This document shows, one piece after another, positions 3,282 to 47,700 of a DNA stretch of 64,000 bases; position 1 is the first letter of the stretch, and each line of letters starts with the position of its first letter. The notes under the pieces are model-generated. The model saw nothing but the letters and a program-made list of their open reading frames with translations, did not search any database and was not told the origin of the DNA. The position numbers were made by a program, and so were the translations under genes. Origin of the DNA: a candidate division FCPU426 bacterium (GTDB lineage: Bacteria; Oederibacteriota; Muellerivitia; Muellerivitales; Muellerivitaceae); the NCBI GenBank assembly GCA_963719085.1, contig CAVRAL010000004.1, forward strand, positions 150,504 to 214,503, read 5' to 3'.

Positions 3282-4016
3282 TTATTTTTTCATTAGATTG
3301 TTAAACGCGTCCCCCATCAATCCCTGGGCAATACCGTAGTAGTTGTCGGTGCTTCCATCGGTCGTCGTAATTGTATTTGCCTGCCAAAGCGTGCTTCCAT
3401 CTTTCGCGGAGATAAGAAAAAATTCCAAAGCGACCGCCGCCTGCCGGCCCCGATTCTTGAACAAGTTTAGATCCTGTTCAATGATGGAGCGTCTTCCCCA
3501 ATAGTTGATGTTCTGACCATCCTGGGATTCCCGGATATCGATCGAGAAGGCGAATTCAGCATAATAATCAATGAGGACGATCAAAATATAAGGCGGGTAT
3601 CCGCAAAATTGGGAGATTTGGGGGTTGTAGAGATATTTGGCGGGGTTTAACACATGCATCAAAAGAGCCTTTTGATAGGTTTCATTGAACGCGACTGGAT
3701 TCAACGACAGATTCATTTCCGCGGCTTTTTCTTGAAGAGCTCGGTCTGTTTCGTTAACCGCCTGGCTTTTATCCGCCACGAAATAAGCCCGGTCTGTTTT
3801 CATTCCTAAAAATTCGCGCTGCGCGGGGACCAAATATCTCGTATCGGATCCGTTCGCGTGGACCCGTAAAGGGCTGAAATAGCTGCCCATATAGGCGATG
3901 GTTCCATTAGGAACGTCAAACCCCGGCGCCCGGCTGTAAAACGAATTTCCAAGGACCCGATTGGGGATAAAAGCTCCTGAAACTAAAAACGTCAATAATA
4001 CCGTCAATATCTTCAT
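3282..4016 (-). CDS. Secreted hypothetical protein
   Basis: Real start is MKILTVLLTFLVSGAFIP (ATG 4014-4016, AAGGAAA ribosome-binding site). The track ORF is extended and overlaps the cNMP-binding gene. No recognisable domain. Confidence 0.45.
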   Translation of the reverse strand: MKILTVLLTFLVSGAFIPNRVLGNSFYSRAPGFDVPNGTIAYMGSYFSPLRVHANGSDTRYLVPAQREFLGMKTDRAYFVADKSQAVNETDRALQEKAAEMNLSLNPVAFNETYQKALLMHVLNPAKYLYNPQISQFCGYPPYILIVLIDYYAEFAFSIDIRESQDGQNINYWGRRSIIEQDLNLFKNRGRQAAVALEFFLISAKDGSTLWQANTITTTDGSTDNYYGIAQGLMGDAFNNLMKK

Positions 4017-39441: not shown

Positions 39442-40206
39442 CTAAGCGGACGTGACCCAGCCATTTTCAACCACAGTCCGCCAAGCGCTTGGGAAAGAAC
39501 CCGGATTCGAAACGAAAATCTTTTCTTGGGCGATCGTTTCCAGCATCAAGGATCGCCTCAGGCCCTGAACCAGCGCCGCCGTCTCCATCTCGACCGGCAT
39601 CACCTGGGGTTCCCCCGCCCTGGCGAAAACCATCAGGGCCTCATTCCCCGGGACGAAAGGATTTTGGGGCAAGGCTTTCAACCCTTGGGTCGTAAAAATT
39701 TCCCAGGGACTAAAAAGATGGTGGGACGATTCGATCAAAGCAACCGAGCTTTTCAAGCGAAAGGCCGCCCCGCGGTCATGAATATCAGCCATCGACAGGC
39801 TGGTTTCCCCGGGCGCGTAAAAGGCGCGGTCCAATGCCCATTCAAGCCTCGCCACATCGGCAATATAGGGCCAAGGGCTGATCTCGGAACGCCCGGATAA
39901 AAAGTCACCCAGGCTTTCGCCGTAATGGGTCAAATCCGGGTTCGTTGAGGGATGGCGATAGATATATTCCCGGCCCAAAAAATTAAAATTGTTCTCCCCC
40001 AAAAGCGCCAGGCAAAAAGGATAGGTGTCCTTCAAAGCCTGAAGCATGCCGAAAATCAGGTTGGCGCGGTAAACCTTCATCCCGTTTCCCGGGTCCGGCT
40101 TGTCGCCGCTTAAAAAAAGACCGCGAATCTGTTGTTGCTGATCCGGCGGGACTTTAGGCGCGTAAACATAACGGATGAATTCTTTTTGGGATTGTTCAAG
40201 CGACAT
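39442..40206 (-). CDS. DUF2063-family partner protein of MNIO enzymes (BufC/MbnC-like)
   Basis: 254 aa. Overlaps the DUF692 gene by 11 nt. N-terminal LxxxFxxxVYAP pattern. Assigned mainly from the conserved DUF692-DUF2063 gene pairing. Confidence 0.6.
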   Translation of the reverse strand: MSLEQSQKEFIRYVYAPKVPPDQQQQIRGLFLSGDKPDPGNGMKVYRANLIFGMLQALKDTYPFCLALLGENNFNFLGREYIYRHPSTNPDLTHYGESLGDFLSGRSEISPWPYIADVARLEWALDRAFYAPGETSLSMADIHDRGAAFRLKSSVALIESSHHLFSPWEIFTTQGLKALPQNPFVPGNEALMVFARAGEPQVMPVEMETAALVQGLRRSLMLETIAQEKIFVSNPGSFPSAWRTVVENGWVTSA

Positions 40207-41023
40207 GGATTTTTTCTTCCAGGATGGATTGGGCCTTCCTTGACTCGGCGTAAAGCACGTCGAACTCGGGGATATTCAAGTCCCACTCAATCAGCGTCGG
40301 CACGCCTTGAAATCGCTTCACCGCGCGGCGGTAAAGATCCCACACCTCCTCGGCGATCGGCGCCCCATGGTTGTCGATCAAGATCCCGTCGGAGCGAAGA
40401 TGGCCGGCCAGATGCATTTGCTTGACCCGCGCCACGGGGATGGATTCCAGGTAGCGAACCGGGTCAAACCGTAAATTTTCCGAATTGACGAAAACATTAT
40501 TCACGTCCAACAACAGGTCGCAGTCGGCGGCTTGGGCCACCGCCGCGACGAATTCCCATTCTTCCATCTCGGCTTGGGCGAAATGGAGGTAGCCTGAAAG
40601 GTTTTCAATCAGGATCCGGCGCTTTAAAAGGTCTTGGACCCGCTGAATCCGCTCGGCGGTATGGCGGACGGCTTCTTGGGTAAAGGGCAAGGGCAAAAGA
40701 TCATGGGTTTGCAGGCCCTCCGCGCCGATCCAGCAAAGATGGTCCGAAACCCATTCGGGCTGGTAGCGGTCGATGAGTTCGGAAAGATTTTTAAAATAAT
40801 CGGCGTCGATCGGATCGATCGACCCTAGATTCATGCCCACGCCGTGGAACACCAGCGGGTATCGGGAACGGACCTGCGCCAAGGCCCGGTGCGGAACCAC
40901 ACCCGGGTTCATATAATTATCCGCCAGAACCTCGAACCAGGGAACTTCCGGCCGGGTTTCTAAAATGCGGGAAAGATGTCGGGAGCGAAGCCCCAGCCCC
41001 GCCCCCTTGATCCTGGAATCCAT
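40196..41023 (-). CDS. DUF692 multinuclear non-heme iron oxidative enzyme (MNIO; MbnB/BufB-like)
   Basis: Xylose-isomerase-like TIM-barrel family signature: N-terminal GLGLRSRHLSRI...VPWFEVLADNYM, HGVGMNLGS, WVSDHLCW. ATG confirmed, 8 nt after the precursor gene stop. Confidence 0.8.
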   Translation of the reverse strand: MDSRIKGAGLGLRSRHLSRILETRPEVPWFEVLADNYMNPGVVPHRALAQVRSRYPLVFHGVGMNLGSIDPIDADYFKNLSELIDRYQPEWVSDHLCWIGAEGLQTHDLLPLPFTQEAVRHTAERIQRVQDLLKRRILIENLSGYLHFAQAEMEEWEFVAAVAQAADCDLLLDVNNVFVNSENLRFDPVRYLESIPVARVKQMHLAGHLRSDGILIDNHGAPIAEEVWDLYRRAVKRFQGVPTLIEWDLNIPEFDVLYAESRKAQSILEEKIHVA

Positions 41024-41030
41024 ACGAAAC

Positions 41031-41360
41031 TTACATCGCCGCCGGAGTGGTGGACGGCGTGGCCGACATCATGGCGCCTTCCACATGGCCGCCCAACTTG
41101 TCGCAAACCCCGACCGGCAGGAAGATCCAGTCATTCGGATCATTGTCCACTTTGGACGTTCCCGCGCAGGCATGCGACTTGGTGGCGCAATCGTTCTTCC
41201 CGGCCTTGGCCACGCCGTAGCATTTTTCCGTCTTGACCATCTTGGTCCAAGGCTTCGCGTTGGCTTGGGTGGCCACGCTCGCCACACCGAAAGCCATCAG
41301 GCTCGCCAGGGCCGTCGTCGAGACCAGTTTCGGACGATCGGTGAAAATATTCGCTTTCAT
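41031..41360 (-). CDS. DUF2282-family Cys-containing secreted RiPP precursor (bufferin-like)
   Basis: Sec signal peptide ending ATQANA. Core EKCYGVAKAGKNDCATKSHACAGTSKVDNDPNDWIFLPVGVCDKLGG with the four-Cys DUF2282 spacing. ATG and an AAGGAG ribosome-binding site confirmed. Confidence 0.75.
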   Translation of the reverse strand: MKANIFTDRPKLVSTTALASLMAFGVASVATQANAKPWTKMVKTEKCYGVAKAGKNDCATKSHACAGTSKVDNDPNDWIFLPVGVCDKLGGHVEGAMMSATPSTTPAAM

Positions 41361-41567: not shown

Positions 41568-42164
41568 ATGAAACAATGGAAGCTATTTTTAGCCGTTTTA
41601 AGCCTGACGGCCTTTGCCGGGAGCTTCGCCCAAGCCGCCGATTACACCATCGATCCCGTTCACAGCAGCATCAACTTCAAGGTGAAACACTTGAGCATCA
41701 GCTATGTGATGGGTAAATTTTCCAAGTTTTCGGGAACCGTGAAGTTCGACCCCAAAAATGTCGCCGCCTCTAAGGTCAAGGTGACGATTGATCCGGCCAG
41801 CGTGGATACGGGCGAACCCCTAAGGGACAAAGACCTTCGCAGTGATAATTTCTTCGAGGTGGAGGACTACCCCACCGCCACCTTCGTCAGTACCAAGGTA
41901 ACGGATATGAAGGATAACCAGTTCCAAATCATGGGCAACCTGACCCTGCATGGCATCACCAAACCCGTGACACTGGACGCGACTTACGGAGGCACCATGA
42001 CGGACGCCCAAGGCCGCCACGTGGCGTTCGAGGCCTCCACCGAGATCAACCGCCAGGACTATGACGTGAGCTTTAATGTGACACTGGACCAAGGCGGCGT
42101 GTTGGTGGACGATCACGTAAAGCTGATGTTCGAGATCGAGGCTTTAGAAAACACAAAGAAGTAA
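41568..42164 (+). CDS. YceI-family periplasmic polyisoprenoid-binding protein
   Basis: Signal peptide. YTIDPVHSSINFKVKHLSISYVMGKF matches the YceI-like beta-barrel family. ATG confirmed. Confidence 0.85.
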   Translation: MKQWKLFLAVLSLTAFAGSFAQAADYTIDPVHSSINFKVKHLSISYVMGKFSKFSGTVKFDPKNVAASKVKVTIDPASVDTGEPLRDKDLRSDNFFEVEDYPTATFVSTKVTDMKDNQFQIMGNLTLHGITKPVTLDATYGGTMTDAQGRHVAFEASTEINRQDYDVSFNVTLDQGGVLVDDHVKLMFEIEALENTKK

Positions 42165-42261
42165 GTGATAACCAAACCAACCGCTCACGTCATGCCGACC
42201 TTCCATAAGAATTTAAGGAGGTCGGTATAGTGCCGATTTCCTTAACTTCAGTTTGGAGAAT

Positions 42262-42440
42262 CGGCGCAAAAACGCCAAGACGCAAAGGTAGACATAGTTT
42301 TTAAGTAAACAAAACTTAGAAACCCAAAACAAAAAAGCCCCGGGTTAACCCCCGGGGCTTTTTTGTTTTAAACATCTTTTAGATTTTAATTCTCCCGAAA
42401 AGATTCAGCCTGCCTTGGCGTCTTGGCGTGCGCCTTGGTT
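42262..42440. repeat. MITE-like palindromic element, copy A; the YceI/helicase bidirectional terminator lies between its arms
   Basis: Left arm cggcgcaaaaacgccaagacgcaaagg (42262-42288) and inverted right arm ccttggcgtcttggcgtgcgccttgg (42414-42439). Internal taagaaacccaaaacaaaaaag resembles the internal part of copy B. Confidence 0.45.
42331..42367. terminator. Bidirectional rho-independent terminator (AAAAAA-gccccggg-ttaacc-cccggggc-TTTTTT) serving yceI (+) and the DEAD-box helicase (-)
   Basis: Perfect 8-bp GC stem flanked by A6 and T6 between convergent genes. Confidence 0.65.
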
Positions 42441-42444
42441 TAGC

Positions 42445-44298
42445 TTACCGGTTCCCGAAAGAATCATCCCCCGCCGGCTGTTGCTGGTGTTCCCGGCGTT
42501 TGAAGTTGCTCGAAGGACGGCGGTCTCCGCCGCCGAATCCTTGGGGCCTTTCATTCCCGCCAAACGAGGGGCGGTGATTTCCCCCCGGACGCGACGGGCG
42601 GCCTTCGGAGCGAACCCCGAAATTACCTTCCCGGGGGGCGGGCTTTGAGTGCGGGCGGTCAAAAGAACGGCTGGGCGGACGGCCATCGCGGTTCGCGGGC
42701 CGGCCCATCGCCGGACGGTCGCTACGGGGATGGGCGCCTGGCCCATGGTCCCGGCGCTGGCGGTTAAAGGGAGCCGAGTCCGAGCGCTTTCCAAAACCTC
42801 CGCCACCCCCGCCGGGGCGGGGAGTCCATTCCCGGCGCGCCGGACGCGCGTCGGCGCGCGGCGCGAAATTGCCTTCACGCTCGGGCCTTCCGTGGGGACG
42901 GCCGGTGGAGTGCCGGTCCGGCGTGTCGCCGTGAAAAATCGCCGGATTGCCGTTGGCGTCTTTTTGGCTGGGCAGGCCGGTCCGGGATTGATGCGCTTCC
43001 GAGCGGCGCTGGTGGCGGCCATCCGGATGGCGGCGTTTGGCGGCGTGATCATCGCCGCGCGGCCAAGAAGGCCGGGGGCTCGAAAAATTACGGGCGCCGC
43101 TGGCGCCGGCGTCATTTTTTTTGAAGGCCCTTTGATGGGCGTGCTGGGGCGCGTGCGAGGAGGTTTTCGGCGTAAAATCGCCCGAGCGCGACGGCTTGGT
43201 CTTGATCGATTCCCGGGGCGCCTTGATGAGCCTTAAAATTCTTTCCCATAAGCCGCGGTCTTCCGGCGTCAAAAGGCAAAGCGACGCGCCCTCCGCCCCC
43301 GCGCGGGCGGTGCGGCCGACGCGATGGATGTAATCCTCCGGGTTGCGGGGCAGGTCGTAATTCACGACGTGCGCGATGTGATGGATGTCCAAGCCGCGGG
43401 CCGCGATATCGGTGGCCACCAGGATCCGGTAGCTGCCTTCCCGGAATTGCTCAATGGCTTGACGCCGTTGGGATTGGGTCCGTCCCCCATGCACGCGGGT
43501 GACTTTAAAACCCGACTCTTTCAACTTTTCCGCCAATCGTTCCACCCGGCTTTGGGTGCGGGCGAAAACCAACACCGATCCCTGGCGCTCATTCAACTCA
43601 GCCGTCAACTCCTCATACTTTTTGGCCTCCGAGGTATGGATGACCATTTGGACGATCTTGGCGATCGGCTGGGTCGATTCGCCCACCGCGATGCGCACGG
43701 GATCCTTCAGGTAGCGCGAACCCATGGCCTTGATGTCGTCCGGAAGCGTGGCCGAGAACAAAAGGGTTTGTCGCTGCGCCGGAAGGCGCTTGCGGATTTC
43801 TTCCAGTTGGGGAGCGAAACCCATGTCGAGCATGCGGTCCGCCTCGTCCAAAACCAAAAAACCGGCCTTGGATAAGTTAAGGCTTCCGCGGCCCAAATGA
43901 TCGATCACCCGGCCCGGGGTCCCGATGACCAAGCGGGGTTTACGGATGAGGGCCGAAATTTGGCCGCCCATATTTGCGCCGCCGATGAGAAGCACCGAGC
44001 CGCCGAGAAAATGGGTGCCGGTCAATTTTCTTAAAACTTCCAAAACCTGGGCCGCCAATTCCCGGGTCGGCGTCAAAATCAAGGCCGTCTGGTCGGGATT
44101 CTTGGATAAAAAGGTGAGGAGGGGAATGCCGAATCCGGCGGTCTTACCCGTGCCGGTTTGGGCCGAGGCGATGACGTCCTTGCCTTCCAAAGCTGCCGGG
44201 ATGGCTTGCGCCTGCACCGGGGTGGGCTTGCTGAAATTCATCTGCTTGAGGGATTTTCCTAAAAATTCCGGCAATCCCAATTCTTGAAAACTTTCCAT
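42445..44298 (-). CDS. DEAD-box ATP-dependent RNA helicase (RhlE/DeaD-like) with a roughly 200-aa Arg/Gly/Pro-rich C-terminal tail
   Basis: Q motif, AQTGTGKT, DEAD, SAT and HRVGRTARAG motifs. Start ATG at 44298 (MESFQELGL, AAGGAA ribosome-binding site). The track TTG extension was rejected. Confidence 0.9.
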   Translation of the reverse strand: MESFQELGLPEFLGKSLKQMNFSKPTPVQAQAIPAALEGKDVIASAQTGTGKTAGFGIPLLTFLSKNPDQTALILTPTRELAAQVLEVLRKLTGTHFLGGSVLLIGGANMGGQISALIRKPRLVIGTPGRVIDHLGRGSLNLSKAGFLVLDEADRMLDMGFAPQLEEIRKRLPAQRQTLLFSATLPDDIKAMGSRYLKDPVRIAVGESTQPIAKIVQMVIHTSEAKKYEELTAELNERQGSVLVFARTQSRVERLAEKLKESGFKVTRVHGGRTQSQRRQAIEQFREGSYRILVATDIAARGLDIHHIAHVVNYDLPRNPEDYIHRVGRTARAGAEGASLCLLTPEDRGLWERILRLIKAPRESIKTKPSRSGDFTPKTSSHAPQHAHQRAFKKNDAGASGARNFSSPRPSWPRGDDHAAKRRHPDGRHQRRSEAHQSRTGLPSQKDANGNPAIFHGDTPDRHSTGRPHGRPEREGNFAPRADARPARREWTPRPGGGGGGFGKRSDSAPFNRQRRDHGPGAHPRSDRPAMGRPANRDGRPPSRSFDRPHSKPAPREGNFGVRSEGRPSRPGGNHRPSFGGNERPQGFGGGDRRPSSNFKRREHQQQPAGDDSFGNR

Positions 44299-44329
44299 GC
44301 TGTGCTGTTCCTTTTGAGACAAATTAAAG

Positions 44330-44449
44330 TTTTCACCGCCAAGACGCTAAGTTCGCCAAGTTAAAAAACAACCTAGAACAGAGCCTAAGAAAACCCAAAA
44401 AGGTTTCAGGTTCGCTGTCCTTGGCGCTCTTGGCGTCTTGGCGGTGAAA
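44330..44449. repeat. MITE-like palindromic element, copy B (about 30-nt terminal inverted repeats)
   Basis: tttcaccgccaagacgctaagttcgccaag ... cttggcgctcttggcgtcttggcggtgaaa. The two arms are near-perfect reverse complements. Confidence 0.5.
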
Positions 44450-44743
44450 TAAGTTTTACAAAATCATCTTATTGCGGTTTTTGAAATGGGACGCATCCGG
44501 GGAAATAGCAGGGAGAAACAACACTCGCGATATTTCGGTTCTGATGAAGCCCTTGGCAGGAATGAGGACACTTTGAAGTCCCGCTTCCTGGACGATTCCA
44601 AACTTAAAGACCGGGGTGACCCGTCTTTATTTGGGGTTCGTATTGTCACCTTCTCCTAACTGACAGGAGGTGTTCCGCGCAAGGGGACAAACCGTGGCAT
44701 TACAGTAGCCTAAAACCCGCTCATTTGGAACCTTTCTTTTAAA

Positions 44744-45817
44744 TTAACGGCGGCTTAACCGGCTCTTGAACTCGTCGATGAGTCCGATCGGAGTGGGGTC
44801 CACACCCTTCAGGTAGGCCAAATAGACGCTGGCAAAGTCCCCGAGATAAATGAGTGAGAACAGCTGGGCCAAAAGCGATTTGCCCTTGGCCTCGATCTCG
44901 GTCACGCCGGCGGTTTTGGAGGTGATCATCTTTTTCAATAAATCAAACCGCCTCAGGATCTGGGGATGGTCGCCCTGGGGCTGGCGCAAAAGCACCACGG
45001 CCATTTGTTTGGTCAGGGGCTCGGAATAAGAATAGCCCAAAATCTCATTGTGGTTCATTTCAGGGATCAAGTTCGATAAGGCGATTTGCTTGGCGTTCTC
45101 GTTCATCTGGGTTTTCCAGCGCAGGCTCACCGAATCCAAGTGGTCCTGCCCGGCGTAAAAAAGCGGCAGACGCTTGTGAAGGAAAAGCGCCAAAAGCTTG
45201 GCGGGATTTTTTTCCGTGGGCGTCAGCGGGCCATATTGGCCGGCTTGCCGGGTCAAAATTTCCAGCGCCTCGTTAAAGTCCGCCGTGGTGGAAGGCAAAA
45301 GTTTCAAGGTTTCCAACGCCGTCAATAAAGTAAAGAAGGAATAACCCAGCGCCGCCCGGGGCGGCAATCCGCCCGACAAGGCCAATATGGGAACCTTGGC
45401 TTTGACGGCTTGCCGCATCAGTTCCCCTCCCGACGTCATGACCAATACCCTTAATCGACGCGCTACCGCCTGCTTAAAAACCGAGAGGGTTTCTTCCGTG
45501 CCGCCCGAATAGCTGGAACAGACCACCAGCGTTTCCTTGGACGCCCAACCCGGCAGGGTGTAATGCCGGTTCACCGTGAGGGAAAATTTCGATTTTTTCC
45601 AAATCAGGCTTTTGAGGATATCCCCGCCGATCGCGGATCCGCCCAATCCCGACAGGATCACTTGGCGGACACCGGAGGATTTGAGCTTCGGCGGATGGGC
45701 CAGCACCGGATAACGCGCGTTTTGGCATTGAGCCGGAAAGTCCAAAATTTTGCGGATCATATCGGAAGGATCGAGTTGGGTCAGGCGGTTGGGTTGGTCC
45801 AGGATCGGATGCGGCAC
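44744..45817 (-). CDS. Bifunctional phosphoglucose/phosphomannose isomerase (SIS-domain PGI/PMI family)
   Basis: SIS motifs QVILSGLGGSAIGGD and VVCSSYSGGTEET. Likely GTG start at 45817 (AAGGAG 6 nt upstream), giving the N-terminus VPHPILDQPNRLTQLDPSDM, which is typical of this family. Confidence 0.7.
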   Translation of the reverse strand: MPHPILDQPNRLTQLDPSDMIRKILDFPAQCQNARYPVLAHPPKLKSSGVRQVILSGLGGSAIGGDILKSLIWKKSKFSLTVNRHYTLPGWASKETLVVCSSYSGGTEETLSVFKQAVARRLRVLVMTSGGELMRQAVKAKVPILALSGGLPPRAALGYSFFTLLTALETLKLLPSTTADFNEALEILTRQAGQYGPLTPTEKNPAKLLALFLHKRLPLFYAGQDHLDSVSLRWKTQMNENAKQIALSNLIPEMNHNEILGYSYSEPLTKQMAVVLLRQPQGDHPQILRRFDLLKKMITSKTAGVTEIEAKGKSLLAQLFSLIYLGDFASVYLAYLKGVDPTPIGLIDEFKSRLSRR

Positions 45818-45858
45818 GAAAAGCTCCTTAAATTTATTAAACCAACAAAAATGGCACA

Positions 45859-45941
45859 CGCAAAGACGCTAAGACGCAAAGTTTTCAAAAACTAAAATTT
45901 TTATTTTCTTGGCGTCTTAGTGTCTTTGCCTGCGCCTTCGG
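45859..45941. repeat. MITE-like palindromic element, copy C (short version)
   Basis: cgcaaagacgctaagacgcaaag ... cttggcgtcttagtgtctttgcctgcgccttcgg. Shares the core AAGACGCTAAG / GCGTCTT with copies A and B. Confidence 0.5.
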
Positions 45942-45951
45942 TTCGATGCTT

Positions 45952-47700
45952 TCAGAATAAAATCGCCTTGAGCTCGGGCGGAACGCTTTCTTTGATCAAG
46001 TCCATCACTTCCTCGGAAGTCTTCAGCTTCAAGGCCGCTTTCGCGATCTCCTCGGCTTTTTGATGGGGCATCATGCGGATGACTTTTTTCACCTCGGGGA
46101 TCACCGACACGCTGACGGAAAACTCGTCCAATCCCATCCCTAAAAGCAGGGGCACAAATTGGGGGTCGCCCGCCATTTCCCCGCACATGCCCACCCATTT
46201 CCCGGCGCGGTGGCAGGCGTCCACCGTGATCTGGATCAAGCGCAAAATCGCCGGATGCAGGGGCTCGTAAAGATACGCCACGGACTCATTCACCCGGTCC
46301 ACGGCCAAAGTATATTGGATGAGGTCGTTGGTGCCGATCGACAGGAAGTCCACTTCCTGGATCAATAGGTCCGCCATGATGGCCGCGGAGGGGATCTCGA
46401 TCATGGCCCCCATCTCGATTTCCGAGCGGAAGACCTGGCCTTCTTTTTTCAACTGCTCGGCCGCTTCCCGGACCAAGGCTTTGGCTTCGCGGATCTCCGA
46501 CAGCGAGGAGATCATGGGGAACATGATTTTAATCGGCCCATGGGCGGCCGCCCGCAGCATGGCCCGCAGTTGGGGCATAAAAATCTCGGGACGTTTCAAG
46601 CAAAGCCGGATGGCCCGCAGCCCCAAAAAGGGGTTGCTCTCGTGCATGGTGTTCAAGTGCGAAAGAAATTTATCGCCGCCTAAGTCCAGCGTGCGGACGA
46701 TGGCCGGATGGACGCCGATCTTCTCCGCCAACTCCCGGTAAGCCTGGTACTGCTCTTCCTCGGTGGGAACGCTCTCGCGGTTGAGAAAAAGAAACTCGGT
46801 CCGGAACAACCCCACGCCCTCGGCGCCATGGATGAAAATCTCATTCAGCTCCTGGGGGATCTCGATATTGGCGGCCAGCGTGACTTGGCGGCCGTCCGGC
46901 GTGGTGGCCGGCAGGTTGCGTAATTCTTCCAGGCTTTTTTGGAAAGCCCGGTAGGACTCTTGCAGGCGCTGGTATTGCTGGAGCGTGGCCGGCGTGGGCC
47001 GAAGCACAATCAGCCCCTTATTGCCGTCCAGGATGAGGGTGTCGCCGTCCTCGATTTCAGCCCGGATGTTGGGCATCCCCACGATGGCCGGAAGGCTTAA
47101 GGAGCGGGCCACGATGGCCACATGGGAGGTGCGGCCCCCGATCTCGGTGGCGAAACCCTTGATGATGTCGGTGGGCAGGTTGACCGTATCCGAGGGGGAC
47201 AGGTCCTCCGCGATCAGGATGACCTCATGGTCCAGTTTTTTAAGATGGTCCTTTTCCCCGCCGGTCAGGTTTTTGAGCATGCGGCGGCCCACATCCTGGA
47301 TATCGTTGCCGCGTTCCCGGAAATAGGGGTCGTCGATGTCGGCGATCAGGGCTTTAAATTTTTCCAATTCCTCGTGGATCAAGGCTTCGGCGTTGAGCCG
47401 GCGTTTGCGGATCGCCTCGGGAATTTCCTGCTGAAACACGGGATCATCCAGAACCACTTGGTGGGCCTTGAAGATGGCGGCGTGCTCGTCGCCCAGTTTT
47501 TCCTTGGCCTTATCCGCGACCTCGCCGATTTGAATGCGGGTCTTGGCGATGGCGTTCAAATACCGCTGAACCTCGGATTCCGTGTCCTCGGGCTTTAACG
47601 CGCGCCGGGGAACGGTGAGGCCGGAAGGGTGGTAAAGATAAGCCGGGGCGATGGCGATACCGCCGGAAGCGGCGACCCCGTGCAGGATTTTTTCGGACAA
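45952..47700 (-). CDS. ptsI: Phosphoenolpyruvate-protein phosphotransferase (PTS Enzyme I)
   Basis: GGRTSHVAIVARSL active-site His and the PEP-utilising TIM barrel. TTG start at 47700 with GAAGGAG upstream. Confidence 0.9.
   Translation of the reverse strand: MSEKILHGVAASGGIAIAPAYLYHPSGLTVPRRALKPEDTESEVQRYLNAIAKTRIQIGEVADKAKEKLGDEHAAIFKAHQVVLDDPVFQQEIPEAIRKRRLNAEALIHEELEKFKALIADIDDPYFRERGNDIQDVGRRMLKNLTGGEKDHLKKLDHEVILIAEDLSPSDTVNLPTDIIKGFATEIGGRTSHVAIVARSLSLPAIVGMPNIRAEIEDGDTLILDGNKGLIVLRPTPATLQQYQRLQESYRAFQKSLEELRNLPATTPDGRQVTLAANIEIPQELNEIFIHGAEGVGLFRTEFLFLNRESVPTEEEQYQAYRELAEKIGVHPAIVRTLDLGGDKFLSHLNTMHESNPFLGLRAIRLCLKRPEIFMPQLRAMLRAAAHGPIKIMFPMISSLSEIREAKALVREAAEQLKKEGQVFRSEIEMGAMIEIPSAAIMADLLIQEVDFLSIGTNDLIQYTLAVDRVNESVAYLYEPLHPAILRLIQITVDACHRAGKWVGMCGEMAGDPQFVPLLLGMGLDEFSVSVSVIPEVKKVIRMMPHQKAEEIAKAALKLKTSEEVMDLIKESVPPELKAILF

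Follow-up and report, generated by a model that had tools for sequence, protein, structure and literature searches.

Repetitive extragenic palindromic (REP) sequences and bacterial interspersed mosaic elements (BIMEs), together with REPINs, which are REP doublets folded as hairpins, are mobilised by REP-associated tyrosine transposases (RAYTs) (PMC3116915, PMC3337134, PMC3733652). They are the closest described counterparts of three intergenic hairpins, termed copies A, B and C, in a 64,000-nucleotide stretch of a candidate division FCPU426 genome (contig CAVRAL010000004.1); this whole 64-kb stretch is referred to as the window, and positions are counted from its first letter. We give a probability of roughly 0.6 to the reading that copies A, B and C belong to a dispersed, non-coding palindromic family of the REP/REPIN kind, which would have spread as DNA and would act on transcripts much as REPs do. 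The hairpins are read in this way because they are non-coding and extragenic, are biased toward the 3' ends of genes, occasionally form clusters, lack target-site duplications, are symmetric at the DNA level and are gained and lost at orthologous sites. The family is present in neither Rfam nor the searched literature and is apparently undescribed.

Direct reading of positions 42000-46200, together with an inverted-repeat finder run on the whole window, confirmed the three elements of the preliminary description with slightly different limits. The features are:

42263..42435, copy A, arms 42263-42302 and 42399-42435, core units at 42265-42287 and 42414-42428.
42326..42369, bidirectional intrinsic terminator inside copy A, perfect 19-bp stem, AAAACAAAAAAGCCCCGGG / CCCGGGGCTTTTTTGTTTT.
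44330..44450, copy B, arms 44331-44360 and 44420-44449, 30 nt and 90% complementary.
45853..45936, copy C, arms 45853-45881 and 45908-45936, 29 nt and 86% complementary.

These are the three top-ranking inverted repeats of the window, with element sizes of 84-173 nt and arms of 29-40 nt. Each is predicted to fold into a long stem on either strand (-41 to -88 kcal/mol; z-scores of -7.7 to -11.3 on both strands), and no coding function is evident for any open reading frame (ORF) that overlaps them. A 15-nt core, CGCNAAGACGCNAAG, had been proposed to be shared by the copies; with at most one mismatch it has 8 matches in the window against 0.19 expected, all 8 within the A, B and C loci. The arms themselves are better described as two to three tandem 8-9-nt units of the form CGC-N-AAG-R following a short outer clamp. 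The left arm of copy A contains the units CGCAAAAA CGCCAAGA CGCAAAGG, and its right arm reads CCTTGGCG TCTTGGCG TGCGCC. Copy B is built from the clamp TTTCACC, then CGCCAAGA CGCTAAGTT CGCCAAG, a 59-nt loop and the mirrored arm, and copy C from the clamp GGCACA, then CGCAAAGA CGCTAAGA CGCAAAG, a 26-nt A/T loop and the mirrored arm; the clamps in A and C are GGCGCA or GGCACA. The further similarity that had been proposed between the interiors of A and B amounts to a 10-nt exact match, AAACCCAAAA, in A-rich loops (p ~0.07), which is not above chance. Scans with the core, with the repeat pattern and with the covariance model R1 described below found no further family copy in the window.

Copy A lies between the convergent genes for a DEAD-box helicase and a YceI protein, and its loop holds the terminator that had been placed between its arms, a hairpin with the G+C-rich stem, short loop and U-tract of an intrinsic terminator. 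The end of copy B is 31 nt from the helicase ATG (44298), in line with its description as lying just upstream of that start, and the copy is probably in the helicase 5' untranslated region (UTR); it has no U-tract and does not qualify as an intrinsic terminator. Copy C was correctly placed between ptsI and the phosphoglucose/phosphomannose isomerase (PGI/PMI) gene: it begins 15 nt past the ptsI stop (45952), ahead of the PGI/PMI start (~45820), and its stem is followed on the sense (minus) strand by CCAUUUUUG, where a run of five U residues gives it part of the character of an intrinsic terminator.

The preliminary description missed that the family extends over at least 15 phyla as octamer arrays of fixed polarity. 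One genome per species (185,579 species) was scanned with the pattern AAGACGCNAAG-N20-50-CTTNGCGTCTT, which copy C fits and whose loops of 20-50 nt take in the C-type spacing, not the B- or A-type. At least 120 loci were matched, against our own estimate of ~17-34 for random sequence of uniform base composition, and the matched elements hold additional units and paired clamps beyond what the pattern required. The general build is a variable clamp of 4-7 bp, two to four tandem octamers C-G-C-N-A-A-G-R, an unconserved loop of 10 to >100 nt and a mirror-image arm. Across 119 elements the units number mostly 2-4 per arm (overall 1 to 5 or more; Sorangium has as many as 7); their consensus is C(95%)-G-C-N-A-A-G-A(63%), N being A in 58%, C in 24%, G in 14% and T in 4%, and successive units are spaced by 8 nt in 172 of 224 intervals and by 9 nt in 22. 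The clamps differ among copies and pair within each copy (TTCACGC/GCGTGAA, GAACCGCC/GGCGGTTC, TCTCGCG/CGCGAGA, TTAACGC/GCGTTAA), the outermost bases being the least conserved part of the elements and the internal units being conserved. The free N is Watson-Crick paired to the opposite arm in 72% of cases. In 33 anchored elements, with clamps chosen beforehand to have 5 or more of 7 pairs, the arms pair in 84% of cells, compared with 68% in shuffles and 35-50% in slid controls. Polarity is fixed: in 123 hairpins the octamer arm precedes the loop, whichever strand is read, and 12 seemingly reversed cases are, all but one or two, visibly junctions of neighbouring elements (local count, 120 loci). 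A reversed-polarity control in viral contigs gave 2 against 1, counts too small to inform.

At least 15 phyla are represented among the matches listed. These include Acidobacteriota (many of them Pyrinomonadaceae), Planctomycetota, Verrucomicrobiota (including Akkermansia), Chlamydiota, Bacteroidota (Flavobacterium, Prevotella, Chitinophagaceae), Chlorobiota, Chloroflexota, Myxococcota (Sorangium), several classes of Pseudomonadota, Nitrospinota, Methylomirabilota, Armatimonadota, Poribacteria and Thermodesulfobacteriota. Bacillota and Actinomycetota contribute 0 of the 120 matches listed (loci L007-L126), though they make up large parts of the species collection. The carriers among the matches listed are overwhelmingly diderm environmental phyla, which is no more than a strong hint of a restricted distribution.

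The covariance model R1, built from 33 foreign copies only, detects copy B (E=1.2e-13) and copy C (E=7.5e-11) as its only matches in the window, and in relatives it picks up their orthologues as well, among them the A-type copy of L001 (14761-14929; E=1.4e-11). It misses the window's own copy A, which it cannot span and where it picks the inner terminator instead; A is thus assigned to the family by its units, clamp and orthologue. No copy was found by R1 in 241 kb from 30 unselected loci of other bacteria. Of the 8-kb loci with a match, 11-13% contain a second copy, a density of about one per 50-80 kb. Carriers thus probably have tens of copies each, and many genomes may lack the family altogether. 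In a single Pyrinomonadaceae genome, the copies L073 and L114 have loop and flanks in common, as a recent duplication would give, and the same is seen in another single-genome pair (L028 and L109).

Tandem head-to-tail arrays that resemble BIME-like clusters were seen in an Ardenticatenaceae metagenome-assembled genome (MAG; L093, 3590-4050), with at least six copies at a period of ~93 nt, and in an Opitutales MAG (L026, 950-1200), with three. A phage or plasmid origin was considered and rejected, as only 16 matches occur in 2.9 million viral contigs and the plasmid database PLSDB yields one solo arm. This arm, TTCTTGGCGTCCTTGGCGTCTTGGCGGTTCG, lies without a mirrored partner on the Nostoc sp. 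UHCC 0926 megaplasmid pn1 (L177, 1500-1530), nested in a different inverted repeat, GGACTTACGCA...TGCGTAAGTCC; four places in the record of this plasmid match.

The genes that adjoin 120 elements were scanned against Pfam, 85 with their start and 125 with their stop facing the element. Stops thus predominate over starts, convergent contexts outnumber divergent ones (26 vs 11) and the core is mostly 15-70 nt past a stop codon, with flanks moderately rich in A on the 5' and in T on the 3' side. The start-facing genes match 119 families and the stop-facing genes 189, with a maximum of 2-3 members per family. As no family is enriched on either side, the element does not serve any class of genes as a leader or riboswitch, and the suggestion that bracketing of the cold-shock-type helicase is meaningful is not supported, the 210 flanking genes elsewhere showing no family preference. 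No transposase or Y1 transposase is among the top-listed Pfam families of these neighbours, and none lies within ~10 kb either side of the window copies, in agreement with the preliminary description.

The preliminary description had left open whether these are miniature inverted-repeat transposable elements (MITEs) or REP-like repeats. They are non-coding, non-autonomous repeats of one family, and the REP-like alternative holds; the MITE label does not, given the variable outermost ends and direct repeats that stay at the level of shuffled controls. Among 118 elements, flanking direct repeats of at least 3 nt number 28 against 27.5 in controls, and those of at least 4 nt 10 against 7.7; the filled C site of L159, set against the empty C site of L160, shows no duplication either. 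Selection at the RNA level would be expected to favour the sense strand. Of 54 elements whose neighbouring genes run in the same direction, 24 fold better as the sense strand and 22 as the antisense, with 161 and 151 G-U pairs, respectively, and this symmetry speaks against such selection.

Relatives were found through PGI homologues and their contigs, and are given here in order of PGI identity to the window:

Window and L158, 100%: C of the CGCAAAG type; B present; A with CGCNAAG arms around the terminator.
L127, 95%: C a near-exact copy of a B-type element; the contig ends at B and A.
L001, 88%: C a ~230-nt hairpin of CACAGATG-type units; B degenerate, with paired changes; A with CGCNAAG arms around the terminator.
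L159, 85%: C a hairpin of CACGAAG units; B present; A with CGCNAAG arms and a loop without terminator.
L160, 81%: C empty (34-nt spacer); B present; A with CACAGATG-flavour arms around the same terminator.
L179, 72%: C a decayed window-type copy; B a remnant only; A the terminator only.
L180, 70%: C empty; B present, with a deletion in one arm; A the terminator only.

Comparison with relatives had been proposed as a check on presence at the same loci. Copy B is mostly retained and is the only persistent copy of the three; the A and C sites are empty, decayed, reduced to the terminator or occupied by another flavour in several relatives. The A-site terminator is closely similar and armless in L180, has a different stem sequence in L179 and is similar in L160, and its occurrence alone in L179 and L180 indicates that it is older than the arms around it. 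The arms of copy B are 88-93% identical to those of L159 and L160, with loops at 47-53%, which is alignment noise, and arm changes are paired: CCGCC/GGCGG becomes CCACC/GGTGG in L001, and GCGCC/GGCGA becomes GCACC/GGTGA in L160. The CACAGATG hairpins, with units CCACARATG / GGATRRACACAGATG, are absent from the window and lie at the C site in L001 (11140-11370) and around the A-site terminator in L160 (3640-3940); their occurrence at different sites marks them as a second discrete dispersed family of the same architecture.

Three further observations concern these sites. The CACGAAG units at the C site of L159 are a third flavour. A separate hairpin with a 15-bp stem, TTAAGGAGGTCGG...CCGATTTCCTTAA, lies at 42213-42245 of the window, just downstream of YceI and outside copy A; it is kept in L160 (~3855-3915), where outer arms of the CACAGATG family enclose it. 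L158 is a Logan contig from the same organism as the window, and its 3' end falls inside the left arm of copy B, which is consistent with a palindrome breaking the assembly.

The likeness to REPs and REPINs lies in short, non-coding, extragenic palindromes made of two inverted halves with a variable spacer that form a long hairpin. Both kinds favour sites downstream of genes or between genes that converge, sometimes cluster in tandem and leave no target-site duplication. REPs occur in tens to hundreds of copies, as the octamer family probably does in its carriers, and mRNA 3'-end protection and termination are proposed roles. Unlike REPs as defined in PMC3733652, the octamer family has no GTAG/GTGG or CGTC tag at the foot, where the clamps vary (TTCAC, TCTCG, GAACC, TTAAC). 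Its arm is an array of 8-nt direct repeats, not a small palindrome, its sequence is common to many phyla, whereas REPs are typically lineage-specific, and no RAYT is seen next to any copy in the 8-kb loci examined. The CGCNAAG unit is in none of the REP consensus sequences tabulated in the supplementary REP table of PMC6006769. The definitions of the GTAG/CGTC REP superfamilies, of the TIRYT inverted repeats (GGGGWSAS) and of the class 2.6 and class 3 'atypical' REPs do not match either. The survey of HUH/Y1 genes does report 'atypical secondary structures' near class 2.6 genes of Bacteroidetes and class 3 genes of Planctomycetes, Acidobacteria and Proteobacteria (PMC6006769), a taxonomic pattern that resembles that of the octamer family and can be taken as a lead, not as a match.

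Other repeat types are more distant. Like the Correia/NEMIS elements and cyanobacterial Nezha, which are MITEs, the octamer hairpins are small, intergenic and non-autonomous, have inverted arms, can form RNA hairpins and can carry or affect terminators; they differ in having no target-site duplication, no known parent insertion sequence (IS) and variable ends around a conserved arm interior. The termini of transposons are normally their most conserved part. Cyanobacterial short tandemly repeated repetitive (STRR) sequences are heptamer repeats, and the octamer family shares with them and with the Beggiatoaceae TAACTGA repeats an intergenic array of 7-8-nt direct repeats in variable number; those are mainly direct arrays of unrelated units, whereas the octamer family consists of obligate mirrored arrays that form a hairpin. 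The TAACTGA intergenic repeats offer a described case of a related motif in two distantly related bacterial lineages (PMC4679880). As for intrinsic terminators, the family resembles them in forming stable stem-loops just past stops with A-rich 5' and T-rich 3' flanks, and in the U5 that follows copy C; it departs from them in its 25-35-bp stems, loops of 10 to >100 nt and conserved sequence, copy A merely enclosing a canonical terminator.

Rfam gave no match in the window at gathering thresholds, with chance-level matches only at E up to 5, and none at the element positions in 18 foreign loci; ARAGORN found nothing, and a literature search by exact sequence strings returned only unrelated primers. 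Integron attC sites, which have conserved R''/R' core sites (RYYYAAC / GTTRRRY) with extrahelical bases and are arrayed beside an integron integrase, were rejected as an identity: only some clamps are AAC/GTT-like, most being TTCAC, TCTCG or GAACC, and in all relatives the neighbours are housekeeping genes in conserved synteny. Likenesses seen by eye to sigma-54 promoters, parS halves, attC and the tRNA T-loop were likewise set aside, as only some clamps fit or the spacing is wrong.

If the elements are REP/REPIN-like, the family would spread as DNA by duplication, presumably driven by an enzyme acting in trans and leaving no target-site duplication. Copies would land or persist mainly just past stop codons, beside existing terminators, and over evolutionary time those at any one site would be gained, lost, decayed or replaced. 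The transcript of an element would fold into a stem of 25-35 bp with an energy of -40 to -60 kcal/mol. Copy A, which surrounds the helicase/YceI terminator, and copy C, in the gap from ptsI to PGI, would then probably act as 3'-end barriers or termination aids, the classical REP effect, and copy B, a large structure in the helicase 5' UTR that is retained in most relatives, may have been co-opted.

Several points weigh against this reading. The crowding of all three window copies into 3.7 kb is strange for a repeat dispersed at random, and no mobilising enzyme was found among the flanking genes or in the ~10 kb around the window copies. No fresh insertion with clean junctions was seen in the compared relatives, so that in-situ evolution or hairpin gene conversion could explain part of the turnover. 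The ORF calling behind the positional statistics was crude. The conserved arms of copy B with their paired changes suggest selection or arm-to-arm conversion, not neutral junk, and the retention of the same octamer across phyla is unexplained by a purely selfish model. The constancy of octamer, phasing and polarity between phyla, the conservation of the B arms and the clustering within 3.7 kb keep alive the best-surviving rival, in which the oriented CGC-N-AAG-R octamers are a recognition array for some conserved protein that binds DNA or RNA, such as a nucleoid, recombination, termination or RNA-decay factor common to the carrier phyla, and the hairpins serve the host and are not selfish. An identical octamer with the same 8-nt spacing and polarity in at least 15 phyla, the near absence of the reversed arrangement, clamps that vary freely around conserved internal units, B arms conserved over diverged loops and the lack of Bacillota and Actinomycetota among the matches listed, which suggests a lineage-restricted factor, are all in keeping with such a role. 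We nevertheless regard it as improbable, because sites are readily lost, decayed or swapped for hairpins of other units (CACAGATG, CACGAAG), no gene family is associated, R1 finds nothing in the 241 kb from 30 unselected genomes, and the copies of a mobile element with one common ancestor would show a fixed polarity just as well.

Less probable still is a regulatory RNA specific to this locus, by which A, B and C would co-regulate the ptsI-PGI-helicase unit, for instance in cold-shock control of the helicase. Such a role would fit the confinement of the window's copies to one 3.7-kb stretch, the hairpins at the same three intergenic sites in most relatives, and the position of copy B in the helicase leader, beside a conserved structured block, where it is kept down to 70% PGI identity. 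It is difficult to reconcile with family members elsewhere that adjoin unrelated genes, with the lack of strand asymmetry, with C and A sites that are empty or hold hairpins of unrelated sequence in close relatives, and with L179, which lost B and kept the conserved leader block.

Very unlikely, in our view, is growth of palindromes in situ, in which immobile hairpins arise at terminators from unit slippage and fold-back template switching, so that likeness between genomes is convergent. The arms of A do surround an older terminator, unit number is variable, as noted above, units are more alike within an element than to those of orthologous elements, and some loops hold small G+C hairpins (L024, L059, L073, L114). 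Convergence on one octamer, spacing, polarity and set of clamp subtypes in many phyla is, however, implausible without shared descent or a shared factor, and same-genome copies with common loops and flanks (L073/L114, L028/L109) and the CACAGATG family at different sites in L001 and L160 also argue for dispersal.

The classical MITE explanation, deletion derivatives of a DDE-transposase IS mobilised in trans and leaving target-site duplications, is largely refuted and is the least credible of the rivals, since its long inverted arms, 80-180-nt size, multiple ORF-free copies, presence/absence polymorphism at the C site and the AAAACTTA / AAAAC(T)TTA-like direct repeats that flank B in the window and in L160 are set against control-level direct repeats, outermost bases that are the least conserved, the lack of a transposase among the top-listed families of the 210 neighbours, an empty and a filled C site without duplication and A arms that enclose a pre-existing terminator.

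Going beyond the REP/REPIN-like reading, it may be, tentatively, that hairpins of the form clamp + (CGC-N-AAG-R)n and its mirror image constitute an undescribed superfamily in at least 15 mostly diderm phyla, the fixed octamer, 8-nt phasing and polarity of which would stem from recognition by a widely conserved enzyme or binding protein. This would be either a new system of hairpin-DNA mobilisation or a host factor that uses the arrays, with the CACAGATG and CACGAAG hairpins as sister flavours that share the architecture.

The genes of the window that surround the elements are on the minus strand, in the order ptsI, C, PGI/PMI, an ORF-free block of ~240 nt, B, helicase, A, with YceI on the opposite strand:

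41568-42164, plus strand, YceI gene, convergent with the helicase gene.
42445..44298, minus strand, DEAD-box RNA helicase (Pfam DEAD 1.8e-50, Helicase_C 1.4e-35), with B at its 5' and A at its 3' end.
44470..44720, minus strand, conserved structured non-coding block, ORF-free, ~240 nt, between the PGI stop and copy B.
44744..45820, minus strand, bifunctional PGI/PMI (Pfam bact-PGI_C 1.1e-53).
45952..47700, minus strand, ptsI, enzyme I of the phosphotransferase system (PTS; Pfam PEP-utilizers_C 1.4e-118).

The helicase carries a long Arg/Gly-rich C-terminal extension. The PGI/PMI, to which P0001 is 100% identical, has copy C at its 5' end and the conserved non-coding block with copy B at its 3' end. 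This block has a mean column identity of 74% over five relatives whose PGI is only 81-95% identical to that of the window. Its consensus fold has several helices, with 56 pairs (3 with compensatory changes), a hairpin insert of variable length and a CACCUCC...GGAGAAGGUG hairpin, and it has no Rfam match even at E up to 5. The block is a candidate novel helicase leader or small RNA that adjoins the repeat family and is not part of it.

In the wider surroundings, rpoN-type PTS genes, HPr and ptsI are on one side and a bufferin-like BufA1/MbnB/HvfC cluster is on the other. The latter, of the bufferin type of ribosomally synthesised and post-translationally modified peptides (RiPPs), comprises a BufA1 precursor, an MbnB/TglH/ChrH-family enzyme and a DUF2063/HvfC protein beside YceI (window 39442-41360; L001 15766-17684), and is kept in every examined relative that retains synteny past the helicase gene. 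An unusual arrangement in this lineage is a GH57 glycoside hydrolase or amylopullulanase-like gene between the EIIB and EIIC genes of the mannose-family PTS operon (L001 5268-7448; L179 1-2177; L181 95-2254).

For the organism, the window hairpins are thus generic repeats and not evidence of a cold-shock regulon. For the family, it is unusual that unit, phasing and polarity are constant in organisms as different as Sorangium, Akkermansia and Pyrinomonadaceae, as a REP-type repeat usually belongs to one lineage and is linked to its cognate RAYT; this constancy would imply a very broadly distributed copying or binding machinery, or surprisingly good transfer between phyla. Palindromic elements of this kind break assemblies, as at the contig end in copy B, and are a marker for genome dynamics in uncultured lineages. 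With folding energies of -40 to -60 kcal/mol and locations at the ends of genes or, in one case, in a 5' UTR, the hairpins should affect termination, mRNA stability and operon polarity, and such effects are to be expected in many poorly studied phyla.

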